This document shows positions 10,912 through 23,740 of a stretch of 24,000 bases of DNA, one piece after another (position 1 is the stretch's first letter; every line of letters begins with the position of its first letter). The notes under the pieces were generated by a model. It was not told the origin of the DNA, ran no database searches, and saw only the letters and a program-made list of their open reading frames with translations. Position numbers and translations under genes: made by a program. The stretch comes from Rhodanobacter sp. Lineage in GTDB: Bacteria; Pseudomonadota; Gammaproteobacteria; Xanthomonadales; Rhodanobacteraceae. Where the stretch lies: assembly GCA_022730075.1 (NCBI GenBank), contig DZBX01000014.1:8417-32416 (forward strand), written 5' to 3'.

Positions 10912-11826
10912 TCAGCCTGGCCGGTGGATGCGCAGAAGGCCTTCCTGCGCGGTCGATGCGACCAGCCTGCCGTCCTGCGCGAAGATCATGCCGCGCGCCA
11001 GTCCGCGCGCGCCTTGCGCGCTGGGGCTGTCGCAGCTGTACAACAGCCATTCGTCGACCCGGAATGATCGGTGAAACCACAGCGCGTGGTCCAGGCTGGC
11101 CATCTGCACATCGTGGCTGAGATAGGAAATGCCGTGCGGCAGCGTGGCCGTGCCGATCAGGTGGAAATCGGAGGCATAAGCCAGCATCGCGCGTTGCAAT
11201 CGAGCGTCGTCCGGAGCCTTGCCACCAAGTCGAAACCATACTTGCTGATACGGCGGGCGCTTGCTGGGATGCAGTTCGTCGCGCGGGTACACCGGGCGAA
11301 ACTCGAACGGACCGCGCCGTGTCAGCCAGCGCTGCAGTTTCTCCGGCAATTGCGCCAGTTCCTCGGGCGAAATGGTCGCTGCCGGCTCCAGGTCATCGGG
11401 ACCTGGTACCTCGGGCATGGACAGCTGATGCTCGAAGCCCGGCTCGTCGATCTGGAACGAAATCGAGCCGTTGAGGATCGGTTGCCCGTGCTGGATGGCG
11501 AGTACGCGGCGTGAAGAGAAGCTGTGCCCATCGCGCAGGCGCTCGACCTGGTACACGATGGGTGCGCCGATATCTCCGGCGCGCAGAAAATAACCGTGCA
11601 GCGAATGCGCGATGCGCGTGTCATCCACCGTTTGTTGCGCGGCGGCCAGCGCTTGGCCGAGGACCTGGCCGCCGAATACGTAACGCGTACCGATGTCGCG
11701 GCTCTGGCCACGGAACAGGTTGTCTTCCAGGCGCTCGAGGCTGAGCAGCGTGGTCAGTTCATCGGCCAGGGCCTGGGACATGGCGTGCTGCGCGAGTTGC
11801 GGGGGCGCAAGTATAGCGTTGCTCAT
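10912..11826 (-). CDS. tesB: Acyl-CoA thioesterase II
   Basis: Typical TesB sequence: LLSLERLEDNLFRGQSRDIGTRYVFGGQVLGQALAAA...HSLHGYFLRAGD...PIVYQVERLRDGHSFSSRRV. Start is set at the Met at 11826, whose ATG overlaps the HIT gene stop (ATGA on the minus strand). The protein is 304 aa. The track start at 12024 lies inside the HIT gene. Confidence 0.85.
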   Translation of the reverse strand: MSNAILAPPQLAQHAMSQALADELTTLLSLERLEDNLFRGQSRDIGTRYVFGGQVLGQALAAAQQTVDDTRIAHSLHGYFLRAGDIGAPIVYQVERLRDGHSFSSRRVLAIQHGQPILNGSISFQIDEPGFEHQLSMPEVPGPDDLEPAATISPEELAQLPEKLQRWLTRRGPFEFRPVYPRDELHPSKRPPYQQVWFRLGGKAPDDARLQRAMLAYASDFHLIGTATLPHGISYLSHDVQMASLDHALWFHRSFRVDEWLLYSCDSPSAQGARGLARGMIFAQDGRLVASTAQEGLLRIHRPG

Positions 11827-12254
11827 TCCGTGGGCGTGACCAGTCGCAGACGCAGCGCCGCGCACAATGCCCGACCCGCGGTCGGTGCGTAGGGCATGCG
11901 CGTGCCGTGGCCCCAGACCGGGTTCGGCCATGCCGCGTCGTCGCCGCGACGTCCCACTAGATGGATGTGCAGTTGGCGCACGATGTTGCCGAGTGCGCCC
12001 ACATTGAGTCTGTCGCATGGGCACTGCGCGCGCAGTACGCGTGCCGCGCGATCCAGTTCAGCCATCAGCTGCACGCGCGCGCCTGCATCGAGATCGAAGA
12101 TGTCCTCGAGCGCGGGCCGGCGCGGAACAAGCACCAGCCAACCAAAACGGCTGTCGTCCATCAGGCGCACCTCGCACAGCGCGAGCTGCGCCACGGGCAG
12201 GGTATCGGCCGCGAGCCGCGCATCGAGCGTGTATGCAGTGGCCGCGTGCGTCAT
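11823..12254 (-). CDS. HIT-family nucleotide hydrolase/transferase
   Basis: 143 aa with the histidine-triad motif in NIVRQLHIHLVGR. Fits the Hint/diadenosine polyphosphate hydrolase-like family. The gene lies 21 nt downstream of the dienelactone hydrolase gene. Confidence 0.8.
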   Translation of the reverse strand: MTHAATAYTLDARLAADTLPVAQLALCEVRLMDDSRFGWLVLVPRRPALEDIFDLDAGARVQLMAELDRAARVLRAQCPCDRLNVGALGNIVRQLHIHLVGRRGDDAAWPNPVWGHGTRMPYAPTAGRALCAALRLRLVTPTE

Positions 12255-12275
12255 CGTGACGGGTACCAGTCGTGC

Positions 12276-12941
12276 TCAGTTGCCCAGATGCCTGTCGAAA
12301 AACGCCAAGGTGCGCGTGCGTGCCAACTTTGCCGCAGCAGCGTCGTAGCTGGCACGCACATCGCAGTTGAAACCATGATCGGCGTCGTAGACATGGAACT
12401 CGGCGGTCGGGTTGGCAGCGCGTACTTTTTCGCGGTCCGCAGCAGTGATGTGGGCGTCTTTGACGCCGTAGTGGAACAGAAGCGGCGCCGTGGCCTGCAT
12501 GTCGACCAGTTGCGTATTGCGCCCGCCGTAGTAACTCACCGCCGGCATGCCCAGCTTGATCGCAGCCATATAGGCGATGCTGCCGCCCCAGCAGAATCCG
12601 ACCACGCCGATCTTGCCGGCGCTCTTGATTGCCTCGGCGGCGCTGGCGACATCTTCCAGTGGTCGTTCGAAGCCGAGTTCACTGATCAGCGCGAAGCCCT
12701 TTTTCATGCCGGCTTCGTCGTAGCCCAATTCGACACCGGTTTCGAGATGGTCGAACACGGCCGGCGCGATCGCCAGATAGCCCTCGGCCGCGAAATCATC
12801 GACCACGCTGCGGATGTGCGAATTGACGCCGAATATCTCCTGCACCACGACCACGCCGCCTTTCGCCTTGCCCGCTGGCTTGGCCAAGTAGGCGCTGATG
12901 CACTGCGTGCCGGTACTGCCGATGTTGATGAACTCGCCCAT
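12276..12941 (-). CDS. Dienelactone hydrolase family protein (carboxymethylenebutenolidase-like)
   Basis: 221 aa counted from MGEFINIG (cat at 12939-12941). The motifs are VVVVQEIFGVNSHIR, the nucleophile motif GFCWGG and the C-terminal HGF histidine. The track start at 13016 adds a 25-aa Arg-rich extension. Confidence 0.85.
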   Translation of the reverse strand: MGEFINIGSTGTQCISAYLAKPAGKAKGGVVVVQEIFGVNSHIRSVVDDFAAEGYLAIAPAVFDHLETGVELGYDEAGMKKGFALISELGFERPLEDVASAAEAIKSAGKIGVVGFCWGGSIAYMAAIKLGMPAVSYYGGRNTQLVDMQATAPLLFHYGVKDAHITAADREKVRAANPTAEFHVYDADHGFNCDVRASYDAAAAKLARTRTLAFFDRHLGN

Positions 12942-14625: not shown

Positions 14626-15993
14626 ATGGCTTCAGTGCATCCTCCGGTCGCACGCGATTTCGTGCATTACGGCGCTTTCGCGCCATCAGTGGATAAGGCC
14701 TTGCGCGATGCCGGCTGGAGGCGCGTCGAGGTCGAACAGCTCGAACACGTGCCCGAGGCTCTGCAGCGCCATGATGCCCATGTGGCGCTGCTTGATCTTG
14801 GTGCCGGGCAGGCGCCGATGCTGCGTCGGGTTGAGCGCTTGATTGCCTCGCATCCCGCCACCGAGTGGCTGGCTCATGTCAGCGAGCATGCACTGACCGA
14901 CAAGCACGTATGCGAAGTCATCTATGGCAGCTTTTTCGATTTCTGCACGCAACCGGTGGACATCAATCGGCTACTGGCTGCGCTAGGGCACGCCTGGGGC
15001 ATGGCCAAGCTGGGGCCGCAAGCCGCCAATGCCGAGCAGCAGGCCGCGCTGGGGCTGGATGGCATGGTCGGGACCAGCGCTGCGCTGGTGGAAATGCACA
15101 ATCAAGTGCGCAAACTGGCGGCGGTCAACGTGCCAGTGCTCGTTACCGGCGAATCGGGCACAGGCAAGGAAGTCGCGGCGCGCAATCTGCATCGCCTCTC
15201 GGCGCGCACGCACGGCCCGTTTGTCGCAATCAACTGCGGCGCCCTGCCGGAAAAACTGGTGCAGTCGGAGCTGTTCGGGCATGAGCGTGGCGCCTTCACT
15301 GGCGCCAACGCGCGCAAGATCGGCAAGCTGGAGTCGGCCCAGCAGGGCACGGTATTCCTTGATGAAATCGGCGACCTGCCACTCGACGCGCAAGTCAATC
15401 TGCTGCGTTTCCTGCAGGAAGGCACCATCGAGCGTATCGGCGGCAATGAGCACCTGCGCCTGGATGTGCGCGTCATCGCCGCCACGCATGTCGATCTGGA
15501 GCGCGCCGTGGCCGAAGGCCAGTTTCGCGCCGATCTCTACTACCGACTCAACGTGTTGCGTCTGCGGATGCCGCCGCTGCGCGAGCGCGGACAGGACGCC
15601 GAAATGCTGGCGCGTTATTTCCTCGAGCGCTTCGCGCGCGAACATGGTGTGCGTGCGCGTGGTTACAGTCGCGAGGCGCTCGATGCCATCAGCCTGCATC
15701 CATGGCCAGGCAACGTCCGCGAGCTGATGAATCGCGTGCGCCGCGCGGCCGTGCTATGCGATGGCGGGCTGATCCACGCGCGGGATCTTGAGCTGGAAAG
15801 CGATCTTGCAGAAGGCCGCTGCGCGCCCTCACTGGATCATGCCCGTGAGCAGGCCGAACGCGAATTGATCTGGCAGACGTTGCGCGAGACGCGCCACAAC
15901 ATGAGCGAGTGCGCGCGACGCCTTGGTGTATCCCGCGTCACCCTGTATCGGCTGTGCAAGAAGCTGCAGGTATCCCTCGGCAGCGCTGTCTGA
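14626..15993 (+). CDS. Sigma-54-dependent transcriptional activator (bacterial enhancer-binding protein) with a degenerate receiver-like N-terminal domain
   Basis: The AAA+ sigma-54 interaction domain has Walker A GESGTGKE, Walker B VFLDEIGD and an intact GAFTGA loop (ERGAFTGA). The C-terminus carries a Fis-type HTH (MSECARRLGVSRVTLYRLCKKL). The N-terminal ~120 aa align like a REC domain but lack the N-terminal acidic pair and the conserved Lys (FCTQP instead of KP). Start is set at the ATG at 14626, preceded by GGGGAGA. The protein is 455 aa. Confidence 0.9.
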   Translation: MASVHPPVARDFVHYGAFAPSVDKALRDAGWRRVEVEQLEHVPEALQRHDAHVALLDLGAGQAPMLRRVERLIASHPATEWLAHVSEHALTDKHVCEVIYGSFFDFCTQPVDINRLLAALGHAWGMAKLGPQAANAEQQAALGLDGMVGTSAALVEMHNQVRKLAAVNVPVLVTGESGTGKEVAARNLHRLSARTHGPFVAINCGALPEKLVQSELFGHERGAFTGANARKIGKLESAQQGTVFLDEIGDLPLDAQVNLLRFLQEGTIERIGGNEHLRLDVRVIAATHVDLERAVAEGQFRADLYYRLNVLRLRMPPLRERGQDAEMLARYFLERFAREHGVRARGYSREALDAISLHPWPGNVRELMNRVRRAAVLCDGGLIHARDLELESDLAEGRCAPSLDHAREQAERELIWQTLRETRHNMSECARRLGVSRVTLYRLCKKLQVSLGSAV

Positions 15994-16220
15994 GAGCCGC
16001 AGATGCGCGTCCGGCAGCGCGCAACGCGCGCGGGTTCATGGCGCACTGACCACGCCGGCATCGCGACAAGCCCCACCGGTTGATTCCGCACGTTGCGCTG
16101 CGTTGCTCCGCGCGGCGGGGGCTGCTCGTGAAATCGCCGACCATCCATTTTTCCGAGTCCCGACGTTGCGCCAGCGCCAAATCAGGGCTTCGTGCTGGCG
16201 GCGGACACGTTGTAATGATG

Positions 16221-16320
16221 TCGTGATATGCCTGTTTCATGGCTGCTACAGCCCATTCGAGGACGCCCGCAAGCAATTAGGCCGTTCCCTTGCGATAGGC
16301 ATTCGGCAGGCGTATCACGA
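16221..16320. promoter_or_regulatory. Candidate upstream activator sequences: inverted pair of 12-mers
   Basis: TCGTGATATGCC (16221-16232) and GGCGTATCACGA (16309-16320) are reverse complements at 11 of 12 positions. Their centres lie about 165 and 77 bp upstream of the -24 element. A match of this quality in a 440-bp region is not far from chance expectation by rough estimate, so it is only a candidate. Confidence 0.3.
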
Positions 16321-16390
16321 TCGAGACACTGGCCACCGACTCCGCTAGAAAAACATGCGCAACTATATGATTTATTTGTTTTAAAGTTAT

Positions 16391-16406
16391 TGGCATCAAG
16401 TTTGCT
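16391..16406 (+). promoter_or_regulatory. Sigma-54 (-24/-12) promoter of the fap operon
   Basis: TGGCATCAAGTTTGCT compares well with the consensus TGGCACG-N4-TTGCW. GG (16392-16393) and GC (16404-16405) have the exact spacing. Only positions 6 and 7 deviate. The promoter is followed by RBS AAGGAGAG (16422-16429) and the GTG start at 16434. It sits in an AT-rich tract directly downstream of a sigma-54 activator gene. Confidence 0.75.
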
Positions 16407-16433
16407 TGAAGACATGGGCGCAAGGAGAGTGCC

Positions 16434-16928
16434 GTGATCAAGTTCCCTCGAATATTCATCGGTTCGGTGTTGTTGCTGGCTCTGCTGCTGGTATTGAGCG
16501 TGTTGGCGCTCCCGGTGGAAGCCGCGGGCGCCCGGCGTGGCGTCAATACCAAGCCCGGCGAGTTCGTGTTGGTGCGCGCCGTGCCCGATCGGCACGCGAC
16601 ACGCATGCAAGCGCCAGGGCTGGCCACCATCATTGACCCCAGCGTGCGCCCCGAGATGCGCGGCATGCTCGGCAATCTCGAGTTGGACGACGCGGCGTAT
16701 GCCGCGATCAGCGGTGCAGCGCCGGGCGCCGTGGTCGAAAACGCAGTCGGCGGCGCGCTGCACGGTGCGGATCTGCTGCAAAGCGGCTCCAGTAGTGGCC
16801 GCGTGCCGGCGATCAACTCAGGCGGTCCGGGCGGTGTGCTGGGTAGCATGGGTGGTGCCACGCGCAACATCGGCAATCAGATCACGGGTGCCTTGCAAGG
16901 TGCTGGCGTGATCAAGGGCGGCGGCTGA
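16434..16928 (+). CDS. fapA: FapA-like secreted protein (first gene of the functional-amyloid operon)
   Basis: 164 aa with a GTG start after a strong RBS. The signal peptide is MIKFPRIFIGSVLLLALLLVLSVLALPVEA. The C-terminal half is Gly/Ala-rich and low in complexity. The assignment rests on operon position upstream of fapB (TGATG overlap at 16926-16930), not on motif recognition. Confidence 0.55.
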   Translation: MIKFPRIFIGSVLLLALLLVLSVLALPVEAAGARRGVNTKPGEFVLVRAVPDRHATRMQAPGLATIIDPSVRPEMRGMLGNLELDDAAYAAISGAAPGAVVENAVGGALHGADLLQSGSSSGRVPAINSGGPGGVLGSMGGATRNIGNQITGALQGAGVIKGGG

Positions 16929-17563
16929 TGGTCCGCCTCTTCGCTGTTGCATGTGCTCTGCTGATGCTGGGTCTTTCCACCGCCAAGGCCCAGGACGGTT
17001 ACGCCGAGATGTTGCGTTATCTCACCACCAGCAGCATCGGTGGCAATGCGCTGGCCGGTGCCAGTGGCGCGATTGCGGTGAATCTGGCCGCTGGTGACAG
17101 CAATCTTCAGTCGAACGCAGCGGCATTGGCCATCGGGCCGCTTGCAAATGTCCAGATCGAACAACGCCAGCGCATCAGTGCGCTGAGCGCCAGCGTGCCC
17201 GACGCGATGGTCGCCGACATCAGCGGCAACGCGTTGTCCGGCGCGCGCGGGCTGATTGCCATCAATCAGGCCAGTGGTGTCGGCAATCGCGAGGCCAACG
17301 CCATCGCGGTCGCCGTATCGCTGGCGCAACAAGGTATCGAGGAACAGTCATCCAACGCATGGCTGGCTGGCCTCGGCACGCAGACGGACGGTGCCACGGG
17401 GGATCGTCCGCAGGCCAATCCATCTTCCTCGTCACGTTCGGCGTCCGTTGCGGGTACGGCGTTGCGTGGGGCGGAGGGGGTGGTGCAACTCAATCAGATC
17501 GCCGGGATGGGCAATACCGCGGGCAACCGCCTGCTCATCACGGTTGATCTGCCACCCCGTTGA
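16928..17563 (+). CDS. fapB: FapB-like minor amyloid subunit (three imperfect repeats)
   Basis: 211 aa with signal peptide MVRLFAVACALLMLGLSTAKA. Three repeats carry the Fap signature: GGNALAGASGAIAVNLAAGDSNLQSNAAALA, SGNALSGARGLIAINQASGVGNREANAIAVA and AGTALRGAEGVVQLNQIAGMGNTAGNRLLI. Confidence 0.8.
   Translation: MVRLFAVACALLMLGLSTAKAQDGYAEMLRYLTTSSIGGNALAGASGAIAVNLAAGDSNLQSNAAALAIGPLANVQIEQRQRISALSASVPDAMVADISGNALSGARGLIAINQASGVGNREANAIAVAVSLAQQGIEEQSSNAWLAGLGTQTDGATGDRPQANPSSSSRSASVAGTALRGAEGVVQLNQIAGMGNTAGNRLLITVDLPPR
17036..17137 (+). repeat. FapB amyloid repeat R1 (coding)
   Basis: aa 37-70: IGGNALAGASGAIAVNLAAGDSNLQSNAAALAIG. Confidence 0.75.
17219..17320 (+). repeat. FapB amyloid repeat R2 (coding)
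   Basis: aa 98-131: ISGNALSGARGLIAINQASGVGNREANAIAVAVS. Confidence 0.75.
17447..17545 (+). repeat. FapB amyloid repeat R3 (coding, most divergent)
   Basis: aa 174-206: VAGTALRGAEGVVQLNQIAGMGNTAGNRLLITV. Confidence 0.65.
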
Positions 17564-17598
17564 AAGCTCGACATCATTCCAACGACAGGAGATACAAC

Positions 17599-18951
17599 AT
17601 GCGTAACCTCAAGAAAAACCTGCTGGCTCTGGCTGTTCTGGCCGCAACAGGCGCCATCGCACCTGCGGCGTTCGCGCAGGAGGGTCCGAGTTGCGACGGC
17701 ACCTGCACCGTCAACACGACGGAGAACTACACCCTCGACCAGCAAGACTGGATCCGCAATTACCTGCTCAACGCGAGCGCCTATATCTACGGTGACGTGC
17801 AGTACTACGAGAACGTCGACATCAATACCGACACCTCGATCCGCCGCGTGCGCATGAACAAGGATCTGAGCCTGCTGACCGACGTCAGCATCACCGGAAA
17901 TCCAACCGTCAGCGGCACCATCAACACCGATTCGGCCGCGATCGCCGTGGTCGACAATCGCCAGCACAACGTCTCCAACTATGGCGAGAACTATCTGCTG
18001 GCCAACGATGCATCGATCGCTGATGACGCGGCCCAGAATGCGCAGGGCAATATCGGCCTGAACGTGGCAGCCGGCGACAACAACCAGCAGCACAACGCGG
18101 CCGCATTGGCGGCGGCGGACGCTTCGTTCGCCTTCACCATGGCCGACTCGGAGGTGTTCGTCGAGCAGGTCAACGCCGCCAATACCACCGGCAACTTCGG
18201 CCAGACCAACTCGGCCAACCTCGGCGGCAACGCGCTGCAGGCTGCGCAGGGCAACATCGGTGTCAACATCGCCGCCGGCAACAACAACCAGCAGCAGAAC
18301 AACCTGGTGGCATCGACCGGCACCAACAGCATGGCCACGGCCTCGGTCAACAGCAAGCAGGATTCGGGCGGCAACTACACGCTCAACGAGGGCTACACCC
18401 AGCAGTTCGTGGACTTGATCACCATCAACCTGACCGGCACGGTGGGCGGCAGCGGCGAGGGTGGCCAAGTGATGGGTACCTCCATCGGTACCTCGGACCA
18501 GCGCTACAACATGTACCCGGACAACTGGGGCGTGGCGCAGGGTGAAACACCGACTTCGGCGCATCCGACCGATGGCCCGTGGCTGGGCCACACCGACTGG
18601 GATACCAGCACGCAGGGTACCGACATCAACGGTAACCCGATCGTGCGTACCCCGGGCAACGACCCGATGGATCCCAGCAACGACGGCGGCTCGCTGGTGA
18701 TGAACAACAACGATGAAATCACTCTGGAAGAGATGAGCGCGGCGTTGTCGGGGCAAATCGTCGACTACAGCTATGTCGCGGTGATGACCACCAACACGGC
18801 CTCGCTGAGTGGCTCTGCGCTGCAGAACGCGCAAGGCAACATCGGCGTGAACATCGCTTCAGGCACCGGCAACCAGCAGGCCAACTCCCTCGCGTTGGCA
18901 GTCACCCAGGCTTCTTCGGGTGGCGGCAGCAGCGGTGGCGGGGCTGAGTAA
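17599..18951 (+). CDS. fapC: FapC-like major functional-amyloid subunit
   Basis: 450 aa from the ATG at 17599, preceded by RBS AGGAGA at 17587-17592. The signal peptide is MRNLKKNLLALAVLAATGAIAPAAFA. Three well-conserved repeats share (A/N)LQxAQGNIG(L/V)N(V/I)A(A/S)GxxNQQxN. They are separated by a 34-aa linker and a 162-aa Asn/Gly/Thr/Asp-rich linker. The C-terminus is a Gly/Ser tail. Confidence 0.85.
   Translation: MRNLKKNLLALAVLAATGAIAPAAFAQEGPSCDGTCTVNTTENYTLDQQDWIRNYLLNASAYIYGDVQYYENVDINTDTSIRRVRMNKDLSLLTDVSITGNPTVSGTINTDSAAIAVVDNRQHNVSNYGENYLLANDASIADDAAQNAQGNIGLNVAAGDNNQQHNAAALAAADASFAFTMADSEVFVEQVNAANTTGNFGQTNSANLGGNALQAAQGNIGVNIAAGNNNQQQNNLVASTGTNSMATASVNSKQDSGGNYTLNEGYTQQFVDLITINLTGTVGGSGEGGQVMGTSIGTSDQRYNMYPDNWGVAQGETPTSAHPTDGPWLGHTDWDTSTQGTDINGNPIVRTPGNDPMDPSNDGGSLVMNNNDEITLEEMSAALSGQIVDYSYVAVMTTNTASLSGSALQNAQGNIGVNIASGTGNQQANSLALAVTQASSGGGSSGGGAE
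18016..18117 (+). repeat. FapC amyloid repeat R1 (coding)
   Basis: IADDAAQNAQGNIGLNVAAGDNNQQHNAAALAAA. The nucleotide-level similarity to R2 and R3 is visible (cgcagggcaatatcggcctgaacgtggcagccggcgacaacaaccagcagcacaac). Confidence 0.85.
18220..18318 (+). repeat. FapC amyloid repeat R2 (coding)
   Basis: LGGNALQAAQGNIGVNIAAGNNNQQQNNLVAST. Confidence 0.85.
18805..18903 (+). repeat. FapC amyloid repeat R3 (coding)
   Basis: LSGSALQNAQGNIGVNIASGTGNQQANSLALAV. Confidence 0.85.
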
Positions 18952-18974
18952 TCGCTGATTGATCGACGTATCCG

Positions 18975-19000
18975 GCGGGGCAGTTCGCTGCCCCGCTTTT
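18975..19000 (+). terminator. Intrinsic-terminator-like hairpin between fapC and fapD (candidate intra-operon attenuator)
   Basis: The sequence is GCGGGGCAG-TTCG-CTGCCCCGC followed by TTTT. It forms a 9-bp GC-rich stem (18975-18983 / 18988-18996) with a TTCG tetraloop and a T-run at 18997-19000. It begins 24 nt after the fapC stop and ends 28 nt before the fapD ATG. Confidence 0.6.
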
Positions 19001-19027
19001 CGATCGAATCCAGCGAATCGAGCCTTC

Positions 19028-19741
19028 ATGGACGCCAAAATTCCGTTTGCTGTGTTGTTGGCTTGCCTGCTTGCACCGGGCGGTAGCGGCTCCTTCGCGC
19101 GCGCGGCCGATATTCGCTTCGGCAACGTGCAGCCTACTGGCGAGGTGTATCGCGCCAAGGTCACCAGCCTGCGTGAGGCGCGCTTCACCGGCATCGTGCC
19201 GCAGGCCACCGATTTCAGTTGTGGTGCGGCGGCCCTGGCCACCTTGCTCAAGTACGCCTACGACATCGATGTGGACGAGTGGACGGTGATGGCCGGCATG
19301 CTGGCCAGGGCCGATCCAGGCAAGGTCGAGAAACAAGGTTTCTCGCTGCTGGATATCAAGCAATACGTCGAAGGCCTGGGCATGCGCGGCCGTGGCTACA
19401 AAGTGTCCGAGCCGCGCCTGCGTAGTTTGCGTGTGCCCGGCATCGTGCTGCTGGACACCAAGGGCTACAAACATTTTGTCGTGCTCAAGCGCGTCGCTGG
19501 TGATCGCGTGTATCTGGCTGATCCCGCGCTGGGCAACAAGACGCTGGCATTCAACGATTTCATGGCCGCCTGGCCTTCCAAGGCGGTGTTCGTGGTGATC
19601 GGTTCGGGCTTCAATCGCAATTCGGTGTTGCTGGATGCCAAGGGTGGACCCAGCGCGCGCACGCTGCTGGGTTCGCGTCAGGGCCCGATCACCGATGCCG
19701 AACTGATCGATTTCGGTTTCACCAAAGCCGACCTGTTCTGA
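19028..19741 (+). CDS. fapD: FapD-like periplasmic C39-family cysteine peptidase
   Basis: 237 aa from the ATG at 19028, with signal peptide MDAKIPFAVLLACLLAPGGSGSFARA. The C39-like catalytic residues sit in context: Cys in TDFSCGAAALATLL, His in GYKHFVVLKRV, Asp in VYLADPALG. The gene is fourth in the fap order. Confidence 0.8.
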   Translation: MDAKIPFAVLLACLLAPGGSGSFARAADIRFGNVQPTGEVYRAKVTSLREARFTGIVPQATDFSCGAAALATLLKYAYDIDVDEWTVMAGMLARADPGKVEKQGFSLLDIKQYVEGLGMRGRGYKVSEPRLRSLRVPGIVLLDTKGYKHFVVLKRVAGDRVYLADPALGNKTLAFNDFMAAWPSKAVFVVIGSGFNRNSVLLDAKGGPSARTLLGSRQGPITDAELIDFGFTKADLF

Positions 19742-19801
19742 GCGCGCGCAAGCAGTCGCAGCGTGCAGTCGAGTCGACGCAGCACAACTTGGAGATCCAC
19801 C

Positions 19802-20590
19802 ATGCGCGGCATTCCGACTTTGATTGCACTGGTTCTTGCCACGGTCCTAGCCTTGCCTGCAGCAGCCGATGAGGGCTTGCTGGGCGAACGCGTGCCCACC
19901 GCCACTCAAGACATCCAGCCTGTATCCGATCCTGCCCTCGATGCCATGCGCGGGCGCTTTGTCACCGGCGCCGGACAGGTGCTTTATTTTGGCGTCGAGA
20001 TGCTGTCCACATGGCACAGCCCGGATGGACGCGTACTCAGTGGCAGCGCATTGCTCAGTTTCGATTTTTCCAAAGGCACGCCGCAGGTCAGCTTCGTGCC
20101 AACCGTCAGCATCGTGCAGGGCAGCTCTGGCGGTGTGCTGGTCGATACCAGCCATCGGACGATTGATGCCAGTGGCCTGGATAACGTCAGCGGTATCGAG
20201 CAAGGCATCCAGATCGTCGGCGACTTCAACAGTGCTGGCAACAGCACCGAGCTGCGCCTGACTCACGCCATGCCAACGGGCGCGGGCAACGGCGTCGGCG
20301 CCAACACGGCATTGAGCATGGACGGTGCCAACGCCAGTGCGGCGCTGCAGGCAGACGGCATGGCGGTGACGCTGGGAATCGATGACCAAGGCAGCCTGCG
20401 CCAGATGATCCGTGGCGATGCATCGGGCAATGGCGCAGTGCTGCAAACCGTCGCTCTGCTCGGCGATGGACATGACGTATCCAACCAATTGCGCATCACC
20501 CTGGTGCAGCCGACGCAGGGTTCGAGCCAGTTGCTGCAACAGAGCGTGGCGCAGGCGTTGGGGCAATTGAAGGGCATTGGTGGGCACTGA
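19802..20590 (+). CDS. fapE: FapE-like secreted protein
   Basis: 262 aa from the ATG at 19802, preceded by RBS GGAGA at 19791-19795. The signal peptide is MRGIPTLIALVLATVLALPAAA. The assignment rests mainly on position between fapD and fapF and on size. Confidence 0.55.
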   Translation: MRGIPTLIALVLATVLALPAAADEGLLGERVPTATQDIQPVSDPALDAMRGRFVTGAGQVLYFGVEMLSTWHSPDGRVLSGSALLSFDFSKGTPQVSFVPTVSIVQGSSGGVLVDTSHRTIDASGLDNVSGIEQGIQIVGDFNSAGNSTELRLTHAMPTGAGNGVGANTALSMDGANASAALQADGMAVTLGIDDQGSLRQMIRGDASGNGAVLQTVALLGDGHDVSNQLRITLVQPTQGSSQLLQQSVAQALGQLKGIGGH

Positions 20591-20631
20591 GCATCAACAC
20601 ATATGCGAGCAACACACTACAGGGGACGACG

Positions 20632-22011
20632 ATGACCATGCGCAAGATCAAAACAGGCGCGTTGTTGGCATTGGTGGCAGTGACACTCGCCGCCAGCGCA
20701 TCAGTAGCGGCGCAGCAGACGCAGCAGGCCGGAGGTACCGCCGCCGCCGAGAACACCCAGGACATGCAGGCAATCACCCGCGAGATGCAGGCGCTCAAGT
20801 CGCGTTACGCTGACGAAGTCCGCAAGCTGCGCGAGTTGGAGATCCGCTTGCAGGCGCTGACCGCGCGCGTGCAGGCGCAGGAGGGCGTGGCGCGGGTACA
20901 GGCTATTCAACAGGGGGGCAAGCCCGCAGCCACGACTGGCATGGCAGGTGTTGGCGTGGCGGCGGGGGCGGCACAGGCAGCAACCGCGACCAGCAGCAGT
21001 GAAACGCTGGTCAGCAGCGAGGGCAGCACGCGCCAGGAGCCCACATCGCGCAGCGTCGAGGATGTATTGCAGCAGAAGCATGTGCTGTTCAACCAGCCAT
21101 TGACGCTCGAAGTCGGCCTCAACTACGCGCGATACGACCGCAAGCAACTCACGCTCAACGGGTTCCTCGCCCTCGACGCGATATTCCTTGGCAGCATCGC
21201 GGTCGAGGATGTCGCATCCGACACATTCACTTATACCTTTGCCGCGCGCAAAGGCATCACCCGCGACCTTTCCGCCAGCATCGAAGTTCCCATGGTGCAG
21301 CGCTGGACCACCTACCAGAAAGGCGGTGCCGGCGGCTCAGCGGCCGCTGTGGCCGAGGCTGGCGTGGGCGGTGATGTGGCCATCGGTGATGTCACCGCAG
21401 GCGCAAGTTATCGCCTGTTTCCAGAGACAACCGCGCGGCCTGAAATCGCTCTCAATGCCAGCGTCGGCATGCCCACCGGACAGGCGCCTTACGGCATTCC
21501 ATGGACCGTGCTCGAGCGCGACAACGACGACTTCATCCGCTTCGCTGTGCCGACCAAACAGCCCACCGGGCAGGGCGTGTGGAGCATCAACTTTGGCGCT
21601 TCGATGTTGAAAACACTGGATCCGGCAATCCTGTTCGCCAATGCCAGCGTCACCCATACCTTCAAAAAGCACTTTTCCGATCTGGATAACAGCCCGGATA
21701 CGGTCAGCCCGGGCAAGGTCGACCTCGGCAACGCGCTCAACTACGGTATCGGCGTGGCCTTTGCCTTGAACGAGCGCATGAGCCTGAGCATGAGTTTCTC
21801 GGAGCGGCTCAACAGCAGTGCCAGGATTCGCCCCGATGCTACCGGCGTGTGGCAAGGCATCATCGGCAGCTCCGGCAACGCTGCGACATTTGGCATCGGC
21901 ATGACCTATGCGCTCAGCGAAAGCATGACTTTTGTGGGCAATCTGGGCATCGGCCTGACACCCGACGCACCGGATTTCAGCATCACCGCCAAGCTGCCGT
22001 TCACACTGTGA
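20632..22011 (+). CDS. fapF: FapF-like outer-membrane amyloid-secretion channel (N-terminal coiled coil plus C-terminal beta-barrel)
   Basis: 459 aa with signal peptide MTMRKIKTGALLALVAVTLAASASVAA. A heptad-like coiled coil (QDMQAITREMQALKSRYADEVRKLRELEIRLQALTARVQAQ) is followed by an Ala/Gly/Ser-rich linker. After that comes about 300 aa with an alternating beta-strand pattern ending ...ITAKLPFTL. This architecture matches what is established for Pseudomonas FapF. Confidence 0.75.
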   Translation: MTMRKIKTGALLALVAVTLAASASVAAQQTQQAGGTAAAENTQDMQAITREMQALKSRYADEVRKLRELEIRLQALTARVQAQEGVARVQAIQQGGKPAATTGMAGVGVAAGAAQAATATSSSETLVSSEGSTRQEPTSRSVEDVLQQKHVLFNQPLTLEVGLNYARYDRKQLTLNGFLALDAIFLGSIAVEDVASDTFTYTFAARKGITRDLSASIEVPMVQRWTTYQKGGAGGSAAAVAEAGVGGDVAIGDVTAGASYRLFPETTARPEIALNASVGMPTGQAPYGIPWTVLERDNDDFIRFAVPTKQPTGQGVWSINFGASMLKTLDPAILFANASVTHTFKKHFSDLDNSPDTVSPGKVDLGNALNYGIGVAFALNERMSLSMSFSERLNSSARIRPDATGVWQGIIGSSGNAATFGIGMTYALSESMTFVGNLGIGLTPDAPDFSITAKLPFTL

Positions 22012-22209
22012 CATGTTTCAGCGCGCGTGCCCCTGCGACCGACCCGTTGCGGAGCCACACCTGCGGGCACACACGACGTCGTGTTGCTGGTGGAGACTCA
22101 GGGGCTCCGCGCGATATACAGCGGCAAGGGCTGCCAATGCGCACTCAGCATACTCATTGGCAAGCAGTCAACGTTCATTCACAACAACCACCGATAAGAG
22201 TATTCAGTC

Positions 22210-23115
22210 ATGCTAGACCTGAACATCGAATTCAAGCTCGACCACATTCATTGCCACGACGAGGGCGATGGCCCTGGCAACGCGGAGCCCTACCTTTGGA
22301 CCGTCTTCTTCAAGGTCGATGGCGACACCCTCGTCGTCAACTCCGACGGTCCCATCGCGCCATTCTTACAGGGCGCACCGACGGTGATCGGAACTCCGGG
22401 CAACCACGGCAACCTAGGCACCACCGATGTGGATGAAGGGGATGACGTGGGCGTTCCAGCGATCATCGGCGAATACCGTACGATCATGAAACCCATACCG
22501 CTGACGACACCCATTCTCGGTCTGTCGGAAGTAAGCGGAATGATCGGGTGCATCGTGGTGTTGATGGAGGAAGACAACACCCCATCCTCCGACATCGCGC
22601 GCGGCCATGAGGCGCTCGATAGCAAGGTCCGCGACAAACTCGCGGAAGTCCTCGGGACGCTGAGCATTAGCAAAACTGAACCGACTGAGGAAGACATCGC
22701 GGCCCTCACCGATCAGATCGGGAATGCTGTGAAGAGCGCCATCGGCGACGGCGTGAACGTCTTCGAGTGGATTTTCGGCTTCGGCAACATGGACGATCAG
22801 ATCGGGAGTGCCGTCTTCCGCTTCTCACACAAACAACTCGAAGAGTCGGGTGGTGTGGCCATCCCATTCAGTCGGAGATGGGAGAACGAAGGTGACTGGG
22901 AACTCTTCGGCCACATCAAGGCCACAGCCATCCGTCGCCAAGAGCCAAAGTGCTGCGACGAGCTGAAGCGGAAAGTAAAGGAACTGGAGCGCACCCTAGC
23001 CGAGCAAGGAAAGCGTCTCGGCAAAATAGAGGCAGATCTAGAGGCGCAAGCCAAAGGCTTTGCATCCGCCATAGTCCGCGCGAAGGCTACAGCAAAACCA
23101 ATGAAACGCGGGTAG
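22210..23115 (+). CDS. Hypothetical cytoplasmic protein: ~250-aa globular domain plus C-terminal coiled-coil/basic tail
   Basis: 301 aa with no signal peptide. The composition is coding-like (MLDLNIEFKLDHIHCHDEGDGPGNAEPYLWTVFFKVDGDT...). The C-terminus CCDELKRKVKELERTLAEQGKRLGKIEADLEAQAKG is heptad-like. I recognise no family. GC is lower than in the core genes. Confidence 0.65.
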   Translation: MLDLNIEFKLDHIHCHDEGDGPGNAEPYLWTVFFKVDGDTLVVNSDGPIAPFLQGAPTVIGTPGNHGNLGTTDVDEGDDVGVPAIIGEYRTIMKPIPLTTPILGLSEVSGMIGCIVVLMEEDNTPSSDIARGHEALDSKVRDKLAEVLGTLSISKTEPTEEDIAALTDQIGNAVKSAIGDGVNVFEWIFGFGNMDDQIGSAVFRFSHKQLEESGGVAIPFSRRWENEGDWELFGHIKATAIRRQEPKCCDELKRKVKELERTLAEQGKRLGKIEADLEAQAKGFASAIVRAKATAKPMKRG

Positions 23116-23275
23116 TCCGTGGCCCAACAAGGCGCTCCAGCCGACGGTCTTGCCTCCGCTTCGCTGCGGCAAGCCCGCAGTTGAGCTTGGGCGTCACAAA
23201 GCACAGTGCCGGCGCGAAGGCTCCGCCACTCCAACCGCGGCTCTTAGCTGCTTCAACACTCCTGAGGAAAGCACG

Positions 23276-23740
23276 ATGAGCGCAACGCGAGTGCTGGTTG
23301 TCTTCGCCATGGCGACGGTGATTCTTGCCGCCGGTCCAAAGTTCAGTGCGTTCGCGGCAGCGCCGCCGCCGAATCCCTGCAAGCTTGTCACAGTGCCGGA
23401 GATGCAACAGATCGTCGGACCACTCAAAGAAGCGCCTACAGCCACTGACCCATCAACGGGTGAGATCAGCTGTACCTTTCGTCCTAGCAAGGGATTGAAC
23501 TTTGTTGAAATCAGTTTGCACGACGGCGACCTCACGGCGTGGAAGCGCAGGAATGGCGGAAAGAACCCGGAGGCAGCATCAGAGTTCGGAAGTGGTTCCT
23601 TCGTTACACCCGACTTCGAGGGCTTCGCGGAGCTCTACGCGAAGAAGGAGGGCCTAGTCTTGCGCGTGAGTGCTCCCAAGGGCGCTCAGTCGGTCGAGGT
23701 CGTCAAGGCAATAGCCAGAAAGGCTCTCCCGCGTCTGTAG
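23276..23740 (+). CDS. Small secreted protein of unknown function
   Basis: 154 aa from the ATG at 23276, preceded by RBS GAGGAAAG at 23264-23271. The signal peptide is MSATRVLVVFAMATVILAAGPKFSAFAAA. The mature protein has two Cys residues (NPCKLVT, EISCTF). The track start at 23150 is an upstream extension. Confidence 0.6.
   Translation: MSATRVLVVFAMATVILAAGPKFSAFAAAPPPNPCKLVTVPEMQQIVGPLKEAPTATDPSTGEISCTFRPSKGLNFVEISLHDGDLTAWKRRNGGKNPEAASEFGSGSFVTPDFEGFAELYAKKEGLVLRVSAPKGAQSVEVVKAIARKALPRL

Follow-up and report, generated by a model that had tools for sequence, protein, structure and literature searches.

A probable complete and divergent fapABCDEF functional-amyloid operon in Metallibacterium scheffleri

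The Fap functional-amyloid systems of Pseudomonas (sp. UK4, P. aeruginosa PAO1 and P. fluorescens) are encoded by six genes, fapABCDEF, whose products include FapB and FapC with, usually, three repeats each, a C39-type FapD, and a FapF that combines a coiled coil, a plug and a barrel with a PTG motif. Fap operons of Xanthomonadales (Stenotrophomonas, Rhodanobacter) were reported in 2013 by Dueholm et al. (PMC3792158), and 1,172 fap clusters were counted in a 2025 survey of GTDB, of which 925 have six distinct genes (PMC12392863). In P. fluorescens PF07, a -24/-12 promoter before fapA has been mapped by 5'-RACE (rapid amplification of cDNA ends). Expression of fapA-E there requires RpoN as well as the sigma-54 activator BrfA, whose gene sits downstream of fapF in an "adjacent reverse" position (Guo et al. 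2022, PMC9207406). Here we analysed a 24,000-nucleotide stretch of contig DZBX01000014.1 (the window), and we conclude, with a probability of roughly 0.93, that its positions 16434-22011 are a complete, divergent fapABCDEF operon of Metallibacterium scheffleri (Rhodanobacteraceae, Lysobacterales). An earlier reading of this DNA (the original prediction) had named the same operon and had noted that the family is not new, as the 2013 operons and the 1,172 GTDB clusters bear out. Its further remark that the system is little studied outside Pseudomonas is fair for wet-lab work, but not for genome surveys, given the catalogue of Xanthomonadales operons from 2013 (PMC3792158) and the roughly 1,170 clusters recorded in GTDB (PMC12392863).

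Six open reading frames (ORFs), all on the + strand, fill 16434-22011 exactly and in the order fapA-B-C-D-E-F. Their coordinates and predicted roles are as follows:

16434-16928, + strand: fapA, 164 aa, putative periplasmic chaperone-like protein (a modulator of the FapB/FapC ratio in Pseudomonas)
16928-17563, + strand: fapB, 211 aa, predicted minor amyloid subunit and putative nucleator
17599-18951, + strand: fapC, 450 aa, predicted major amyloid subunit
19028-19741, + strand: fapD, 237 aa, predicted periplasmic C39-family cysteine peptidase (required for FapC secretion in Pseudomonas)
19802-20590, + strand: fapE, 262 aa, predicted secreted minor protein, fibre-associated
20632-22011, + strand: fapF, 459 aa, predicted outer-membrane channel for amyloid secretion

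To refine the gene starts, we combined the gene calls of a public contig that is 99-100% identical (L001) with the sequence 5' of each start, which is purine-rich for most of the six genes. The intergenic gaps from fapA to fapF are, in order, -1, 35, 76, 60 and 41 nt, and the ORF listing of 16434-22011 offers no convincing rival on the opposite strand. Read by eye, all six N-termini resemble Sec signal peptides: one or two basic residues come first, then a hydrophobic stretch and an AxA-like site (for example ...ALPVEA/AG, ...STAKA/QD and ...PAAFA/QE, the slash marking the cleavage site). The co-directional, closely spaced genes and the Sec signal peptide on each that the original prediction had described are thus borne out, as is the stated agreement with Pseudomonas in gene order and size: the Pseudomonas models of FapA-F measure 146/190/321/224/247/420 aa, similar to the 164/211/450/237/262/459 aa found here.

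Searches with profile hidden Markov models, which the original prediction had proposed as a check, matched each of the six products to its cognate NCBIfam Fap model, in operon order:

FapA: NF058617 (chaperone_FapA), E 6e-4, residues 31-155 (nearly full-length), 20 bits against a cut-off of 110
FapB: NF058557, E 1.4e-24, 87 bits against a cut-off of 190
FapC: NF058558, E 2.2e-48, 166 bits against a cut-off of 195
FapD: NF058616 (C39_FapD), E 3.1e-71, 239 bits against a cut-off of 330
FapE: NF058559, E 1e-20, profile positions 23-241 of 247, 74 bits against a cut-off of 250
FapF: NF058560, E 4e-112, 375 bits against a cut-off of 700

The matches of FapB, FapC and FapF, on which the original prediction had staked the identification, are all highly significant. 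Complete syntenic fapABCDEF loci, with products 36-62% identical to those encoded here, were found in the species-representative genomes of a Stenotrophomonas, a Thermomonas and a gammaproteobacterial metagenome-assembled genome, or MAG (loci L004-L006), and this synteny adds to the one cognate match per gene. The first genes of these three loci encode proteins 36-41% identical to the fapA product, and they themselves match the FapA model at 1e-7 to 1e-9; the products of the fifth genes are 38-40% identical to that of fapE. Pfam gave a thinner picture. The local copy returned nothing for genes 1, 2, 3 and 5, and above its cut-offs only Peptidase_C39 for gene 4 and Phenol_MetA_deg for gene 6 (1.3e-08), the latter labelled, misleadingly, "phenol degradation"; in precomputed annotation, FapB and FapC of the identical contig both carry PF27129 (FapBC). 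The NCBIfam searches and sequence searches of the PDB resolved this picture.

The Phenol_MetA_deg match is also the starting point for a different reading of gene 6, namely that it encodes an uptake channel for hydrophobic compounds of the COG4313/MetA-pathway type and that its neighbours are unrelated adhesins. This is the only Pfam match of gene 6 above cut-off, the public names of these proteins include "transporter" and "adhesin", and FapF is structurally related to COG4313 channels, the PTG motif having been described for both (PMC6173800). The match to FapF is much stronger, however: alongside the NCBIfam score, a PDB sequence search aligned residues 138-457 with the solved Pseudomonas FapF barrel (5O65/5O67/5O68) at 2.4e-80, with about 35-38% identity to these structures. 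An AlphaFold2 (AF2) model built from a 33-sequence alignment has a barrel with predicted local distance difference test (pLDDT) values mostly of 80-93. When this model was compared with the PDB by Foldseek, the top 18 matches were FapF chains, with E down to 1e-31, target-normalised template-modelling (TM) scores of 0.89-0.93 and root-mean-square deviations of 1.3-3.9 A. FadL, autotransporters and porins followed far behind at TM scores of about 0.3-0.5, FadL/TbuX-type channels scoring about 0.35. The model comprises these parts:

N-terminus: signal helix
residues 37-92: long helix
residues 93-139: disordered linker
residues 140-152: helix at the plug position
residues 158-458: beta-barrel

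The 56-residue helix 37-92 has a heptad a/d hydrophobic pattern that was equalled by 21 of 2000 shuffled sequences, and the PTG motif (P281-T282-G283) is invariant across 33 aligned homologues. With a coiled-coil stalk, a plug helix and a place in a conserved six-gene Fap context, gene 6 is very unlikely to be an uptake channel of the COG4313 type. The coiled coil and C-terminal barrel that the original prediction had ascribed to gene 6 are thus both recovered, and the structure prediction it had suggested superposes on the FapF barrel, with the N-terminal helix and plug helix upstream.

FapD matches Pfam Peptidase_C39 (PF03412) at 5e-19. Aligned with the C39 domain of LahT (6MPZ), it has the ...Q..CGAA..., HFVVLK and DPA segments in register, so that the catalytic Gln, Cys65, His and Asp line up. 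FapD thus keeps the complete C39 set, including the Cys, His and Asp first noticed in the original prediction, and is a predicted peptidase. FapD and FapF also match the NCBIfam models pilus_FilB (8.9e-33) and pilus_FilC (1.4e-24), respectively, which could suggest that the genes encode a putative pilus system of the Fil type, with a FilB C39 peptidase and a FilC outer-membrane protein, rather than Fap. On the same proteins, however, the Fap models outscore the Fil models by 239 to 114 bits for FapD and by 375 to 87 bits for FapF, and the two Fil scores are far under their own cut-offs of 475 and 630. The cluster also encodes homologues of FapA, FapB, FapC and FapE, and the FapBC repeats are present. 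We therefore regard a Fil system as highly improbable, and take the FilB and FilC matches to mean that Fil and Fap share a peptidase and a channel.

The two predicted amyloid subunits each contain three imperfect repeats, as had been seen at the outset; the unit measures 36 aa and all six copies align without gaps, with seven invariant columns (A7, A11, G13, N18, G22, N25 and N29) and a mean column identity of 64%. The third FapB repeat is the most divergent of the six. The repeats lie as follows:

FapB: about residues 35-70, 96-131 and 172-207
FapC: R1, residues 138-173; R2, residues 206-241; R3, residues 401-436

In FapC, the signal peptide is followed by an N-terminal extension of about 110 aa; between the repeats are a short linker L1 and a linker L2 of about 160 aa, and the C-terminal tail is Gly-rich. 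A PDB search aligned the protein at about 4e-18 with chains 9NQD/9U4U of the solved FapC fibril in two blocks, one covering R1-R2 and the other R3, and by this sequence homology to a cross-beta fibril the FapC encoded here is a predicted amyloid protein. Its identity to Pseudomonas FapC is lower than that of FapF to its counterpart, and it differs further in its ends. The N-terminal extension carries a CxxxC (C32, C36) just past the signal peptide, which in the clade alignment is found only in Metallibacterium-like FapC sequences, and a poly-Gly tail (...QASSGGGSSGGGAE) replaces the C-terminal CxxC of Pseudomonas UK4 throughout the Lysobacterales FapC clade. With Lysobacterales/Xanthomonadales fap systems (Stenotrophomonas, Rhodanobacter, Thermomonas, Lysobacter; PMC3792158) the locus shares its operon architecture, and its FapC shares a long N-terminal segment, a block before R1 (KDLSL...DSAAIAVVDNRQ), a motif in L2 and the poly-Gly tail.

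Curli was considered as another repeat-based amyloid. No Curlin_rpt, CsgA/CsgB or CsgG/E/F family was among the Pfam and NCBIfam matches of the six proteins, in keeping with the earlier view that the repeats differ from the CsgA type. The curli systems of Enterobacteria (csgBAC/csgDEFG) follow the same logic of Sec export, a dedicated channel, a nucleator plus a repeat-bearing major subunit, and extracellular polymerisation, but the proteins are unrelated: the channel here is a FapF-type barrel and not a CsgG nonamer, and the repeats are about 36 aa long and separated by linkers.

Linker L2 of FapC (18331-18783, about residues 245-395) contains the motif DQxxNxYPD(N/I)W...HP.GG..GHxDxD..QG. 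Nine of its residues (Q301, Y306, D308, W310, H322, H331, D333, D335 and Q339) are invariant in 32 Lysobacterales FapCs, where the motif reads DQxxNxYPDNW...HP..G..GHxDxD..QG, and the first eight of these residues are also invariant in five more distant FapCs. That L2 can be long and variable is already documented: its length is 35-259 residues in Pseudomonas (PMC12392863) and, overall, 377 +/- 143 aa (PMC3792158). An exhaustive phmmer search of 1.84 billion representatives with L2 alone as the query returned 14 proteins, all FapC-like, which rules out that L2 is a mobile or known domain. A motif specific to Lysobacterales was likewise ruled out: 3 of the 14 proteins pass the FapC equivalog cut-off, one of them with a Pseudomonas-type CxxC, and the motif is thus shared beyond this order. 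AF2 yields no confident fold for L2. Displayed in register along the fibre, the module could form a periodic metal-binding or catalytic array, a speculation that we consider improbable; if it were true, L2 would be more than a variable "fuzzy coat", and the array would be relevant to the metal-rich acid-mine habitat. The His/Asp-rich motif is the only mildly new item of this analysis and may be under-appreciated.

Two elements that had not featured in the original prediction, a sigma-54 promoter and an adjacent activator gene, precede the operon:

14626-15993, + strand: sigma-54-dependent enhancer-binding protein, about 455 aa (ORF start possibly 14509), composed of VpsR-type (N-terminal), AAA+ sigma-54 interaction and Fis-type helix-turn-helix (HTH) domains
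16391-16406, + strand: sigma-54 (-24/-12) promoter, TGGCAT-caagt-TTGCT, with GG-N10-GC spacing

The promoter motif lies 43 nt 5' of the fapA GTG behind an A/T-rich tract, with a purine-rich AAGGAGAG a few nt ahead of the GTG itself. The pattern TGGCA[CT]N5NTGC occurs once on the + strand of the whole window, and the motif recurs at -48 to -51 of fapA in the three relatives (-43 here). No sigma-70-like promoter was found in 15900-23200. The activator product matches Sigma54_activat (1.6e-69), VpsR (5.9e-16), AAA_lid_14 and HTH_8 in Pfam; its gene is called at 3995-5362 on the identical contig. Homologues with 44-49% identity adjoin fapF in all three relatives:

L004, about 11347-12681, - strand: activator homologue
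L005, about 11350-12726, - strand: activator homologue
L006, about 11269-12504, - strand: activator homologue

The position of the gene is switched between them, being upstream on the same strand in Metallibacterium and downstream on the opposite strand in the Stenotrophomonas, the Thermomonas and the MAG. An adjacent sigma-54 activator and a conserved -24/-12 motif are nonetheless features that the locus shares with Lysobacterales/Xanthomonadales fap systems. By analogy with P. fluorescens PF07, where a -24/-12 promoter is likewise accompanied by an adjacent Fis-family activator (BrfA, 441 aa, compared with about 455 aa here), we propose the gene product as a candidate dedicated, BrfA-like activator of the fap operon. 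The regulatory link from activator to promoter would follow from the conserved linkage and from the RpoN/BrfA control known in P. fluorescens.

Candidate upstream activator sites were also located:

16221-16234, TCGTGATATGCCTG, and 16307-16320, CAGGCGTATCACGA: 14-nt inverted arms, 93% complementary, 72 nt apart

Both arms are upstream of the -24 element, at a distance of about 70-170 nt, and are candidate binding sites for the activator. At the same position the relatives have a different repeated motif (GTGTAACAGG / GTATCAC). Repeats of the GGGTGTAACAGG / GTGTATCAC type, 100-200 nt upstream of the sigma-54 promoter, are common to the relatives and are possible activator sites; in their place the window carries a related pair, GCGTATCACG / CGTGATATGC. 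The repeated motifs of the relatives upstream of fapA are at these positions:

L004: about 5660-5760
L005: about 5400-5480
L006: about 5590-5700

The assignment to M. scheffleri follows from protein identity. FapF is 99-100% identical to "transporter [Metallibacterium scheffleri]", and FapC is 91-93% identical to "adhesin [Metallibacterium sp.]", with one match from a mine-drainage metagenome. A non-Pseudomonas host, as originally proposed, is thereby upheld, but the argument from high GC content that had been offered for it is not, since 61-66% GC also fits P. aeruginosa, whose genome has about 66%. More widely, protein searches gave FapC and FapF homologues in the hundreds, from genera that include Stenotrophomonas, Lysobacter, Luteimonas and Rhodanobacter. 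Among M. scheffleri genomes and numerous independent metagenome contigs, the proteins of the operon are 98-100% conserved, a sign of purifying selection that bears on whether the operon might be a decaying or silent remnant from which fibres are no longer made. Such a remnant would be compatible with an operon studied here at the level of its sequence and with six scores under the equivalog thresholds. Besides the protein conservation, however, none of the six ORFs is broken, all encode signal peptides and most have purine-rich sequence ahead of their starts, the catalytic and structural motifs are conserved, and so is the promoter motif. We consider decay or silence most unlikely, and retain a complete fap operon as the interpretation of the locus.

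Several points nevertheless weigh against this interpretation. The most general is that none of the six products reaches the equivalog cut-off of its NCBIfam model. An equivalog cut-off is an annotation threshold and not a defining biological feature, and the sub-threshold scores indicate divergence from the Pseudomonas training set; the six proteins would thus be a divergent orthologue set and not Pseudomonas-type. The direct match to the FapA model is weak (E 6e-4), and the FapA assignment, which draws on this match, on transitive homology and on gene position, is the least secure of the six. Fap systems can dispense with FapA, and no other fap gene is lacking as often. The AF2 model of FapC is poor, with a mean pLDDT of 52 from a 32-sequence alignment and values below 50 in the N-terminal extension and L2, and the predicted solenoid fold therefore rests on sequence homology to the solved fibril. 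The activator gene lies upstream and on the same strand here, as opposed to downstream and reversed in the relatives and in PF07. Finally, a literature search brought up no publication in which Metallibacterium is connected with Fap or amyloid.

A mechanism is proposed in which the homology of each part has been established and the individual steps are modelled on Pseudomonas work (PMC6173800, PMC12392863, PMC3792158). The VpsR-type activator and sigma-54 would switch on the -24/-12 promoter to give a single fapA-F transcript, and the Sec pathway would export the six products to the periplasm by means of the signal peptides read from their sequences. FapF, whose fold homology is evident, would form a plugged outer-membrane beta-barrel with a periplasmic coiled-coil stalk, and may trimerise as Pseudomonas FapF does. 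Unfolded FapB, FapC and FapE would then traverse FapF under the control of FapD and the chaperone-like FapA, as Pseudomonas genetics suggests. Outside the cell, the Asn/Gln/Gly/Ala-rich repeats of FapC, homologous to those of the solved fibril, would stack into a Greek-key beta-solenoid and polymerise; FapB is probably the nucleator, and the N-terminal segment and linkers of FapC would lie on the fibre surface. The expected product is a biofilm matrix fibre resistant to acid, detergent and protease, which would suit an organism of acidic mine biofilms.

The flanking regions agree with the neighbours listed in the original prediction: a GspD secretin, a weak GspM match, PrpD and RimO were all recovered. 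Part of a type II secretion cluster occupies 1023-4286 on the + strand, and ORFs on either side of the operon include the following:

1023-1604, + strand: weak GspM/XpsM-like ORF
2025-4286, + strand: GspD secretin (TIGR02517, 3.6e-102, just below cut-off)
22210-23115, + strand: ORF after fapF, 301 aa, no signal peptide, coiled-coil-like Lys/Glu-rich C-terminus
23276-23740, + strand: next ORF, 154 aa, secreted or lipoprotein-like

The neighbouring ORFs 70-1026 and 1594-2151 gave no family match. For the two ORFs downstream of fapF, nothing significant was found in Pfam, NCBIfam or PADLOC, the one match being a sub-cut-off DUF3558 at 3e-4. Neither occurs at the fap locus of any of the three relatives, which indicates that they are not part of the Fap system. 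The GC content is 58-60% from 22210 onward to 24000, compared with 61-66% elsewhere in the window. No convincing intrinsic terminator was identified in the 198 nt after fapF (22012-22209); all that stands out there is a perfect inverted repeat of 8 nt at 22132-22162, TGCCAATG/CATTGGCA.

Published work already covers the operon family and how widely it is distributed, the structures of FapF and FapC, and the control by RpoN and BrfA, so the locus adds no new principle and will not surprise a specialist. Its main value is in annotation repair. NCBI records give proteins identical or near-identical to those described here the name "adhesin" for FapC, "transporter" for FapF, or else "hypothetical protein". 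These names arise because the six scores are below the NCBI equivalog cut-offs; with cut-offs trained on Pseudomonas, the Prokaryotic Genome Annotation Pipeline (PGAP) leaves Fap operons of this order unlabelled as Fap. The genes of M. scheffleri and of many Lysobacterales that carry such labels would together form a complete Fap machine. Beyond annotation, the analysis should help to predict what the matrix of acid-mine biofilms is made of: acidic mine biofilms with Metallibacterium should contain Fap amyloid, its production turned on via sigma-54 and a VpsR-type activator of its own.

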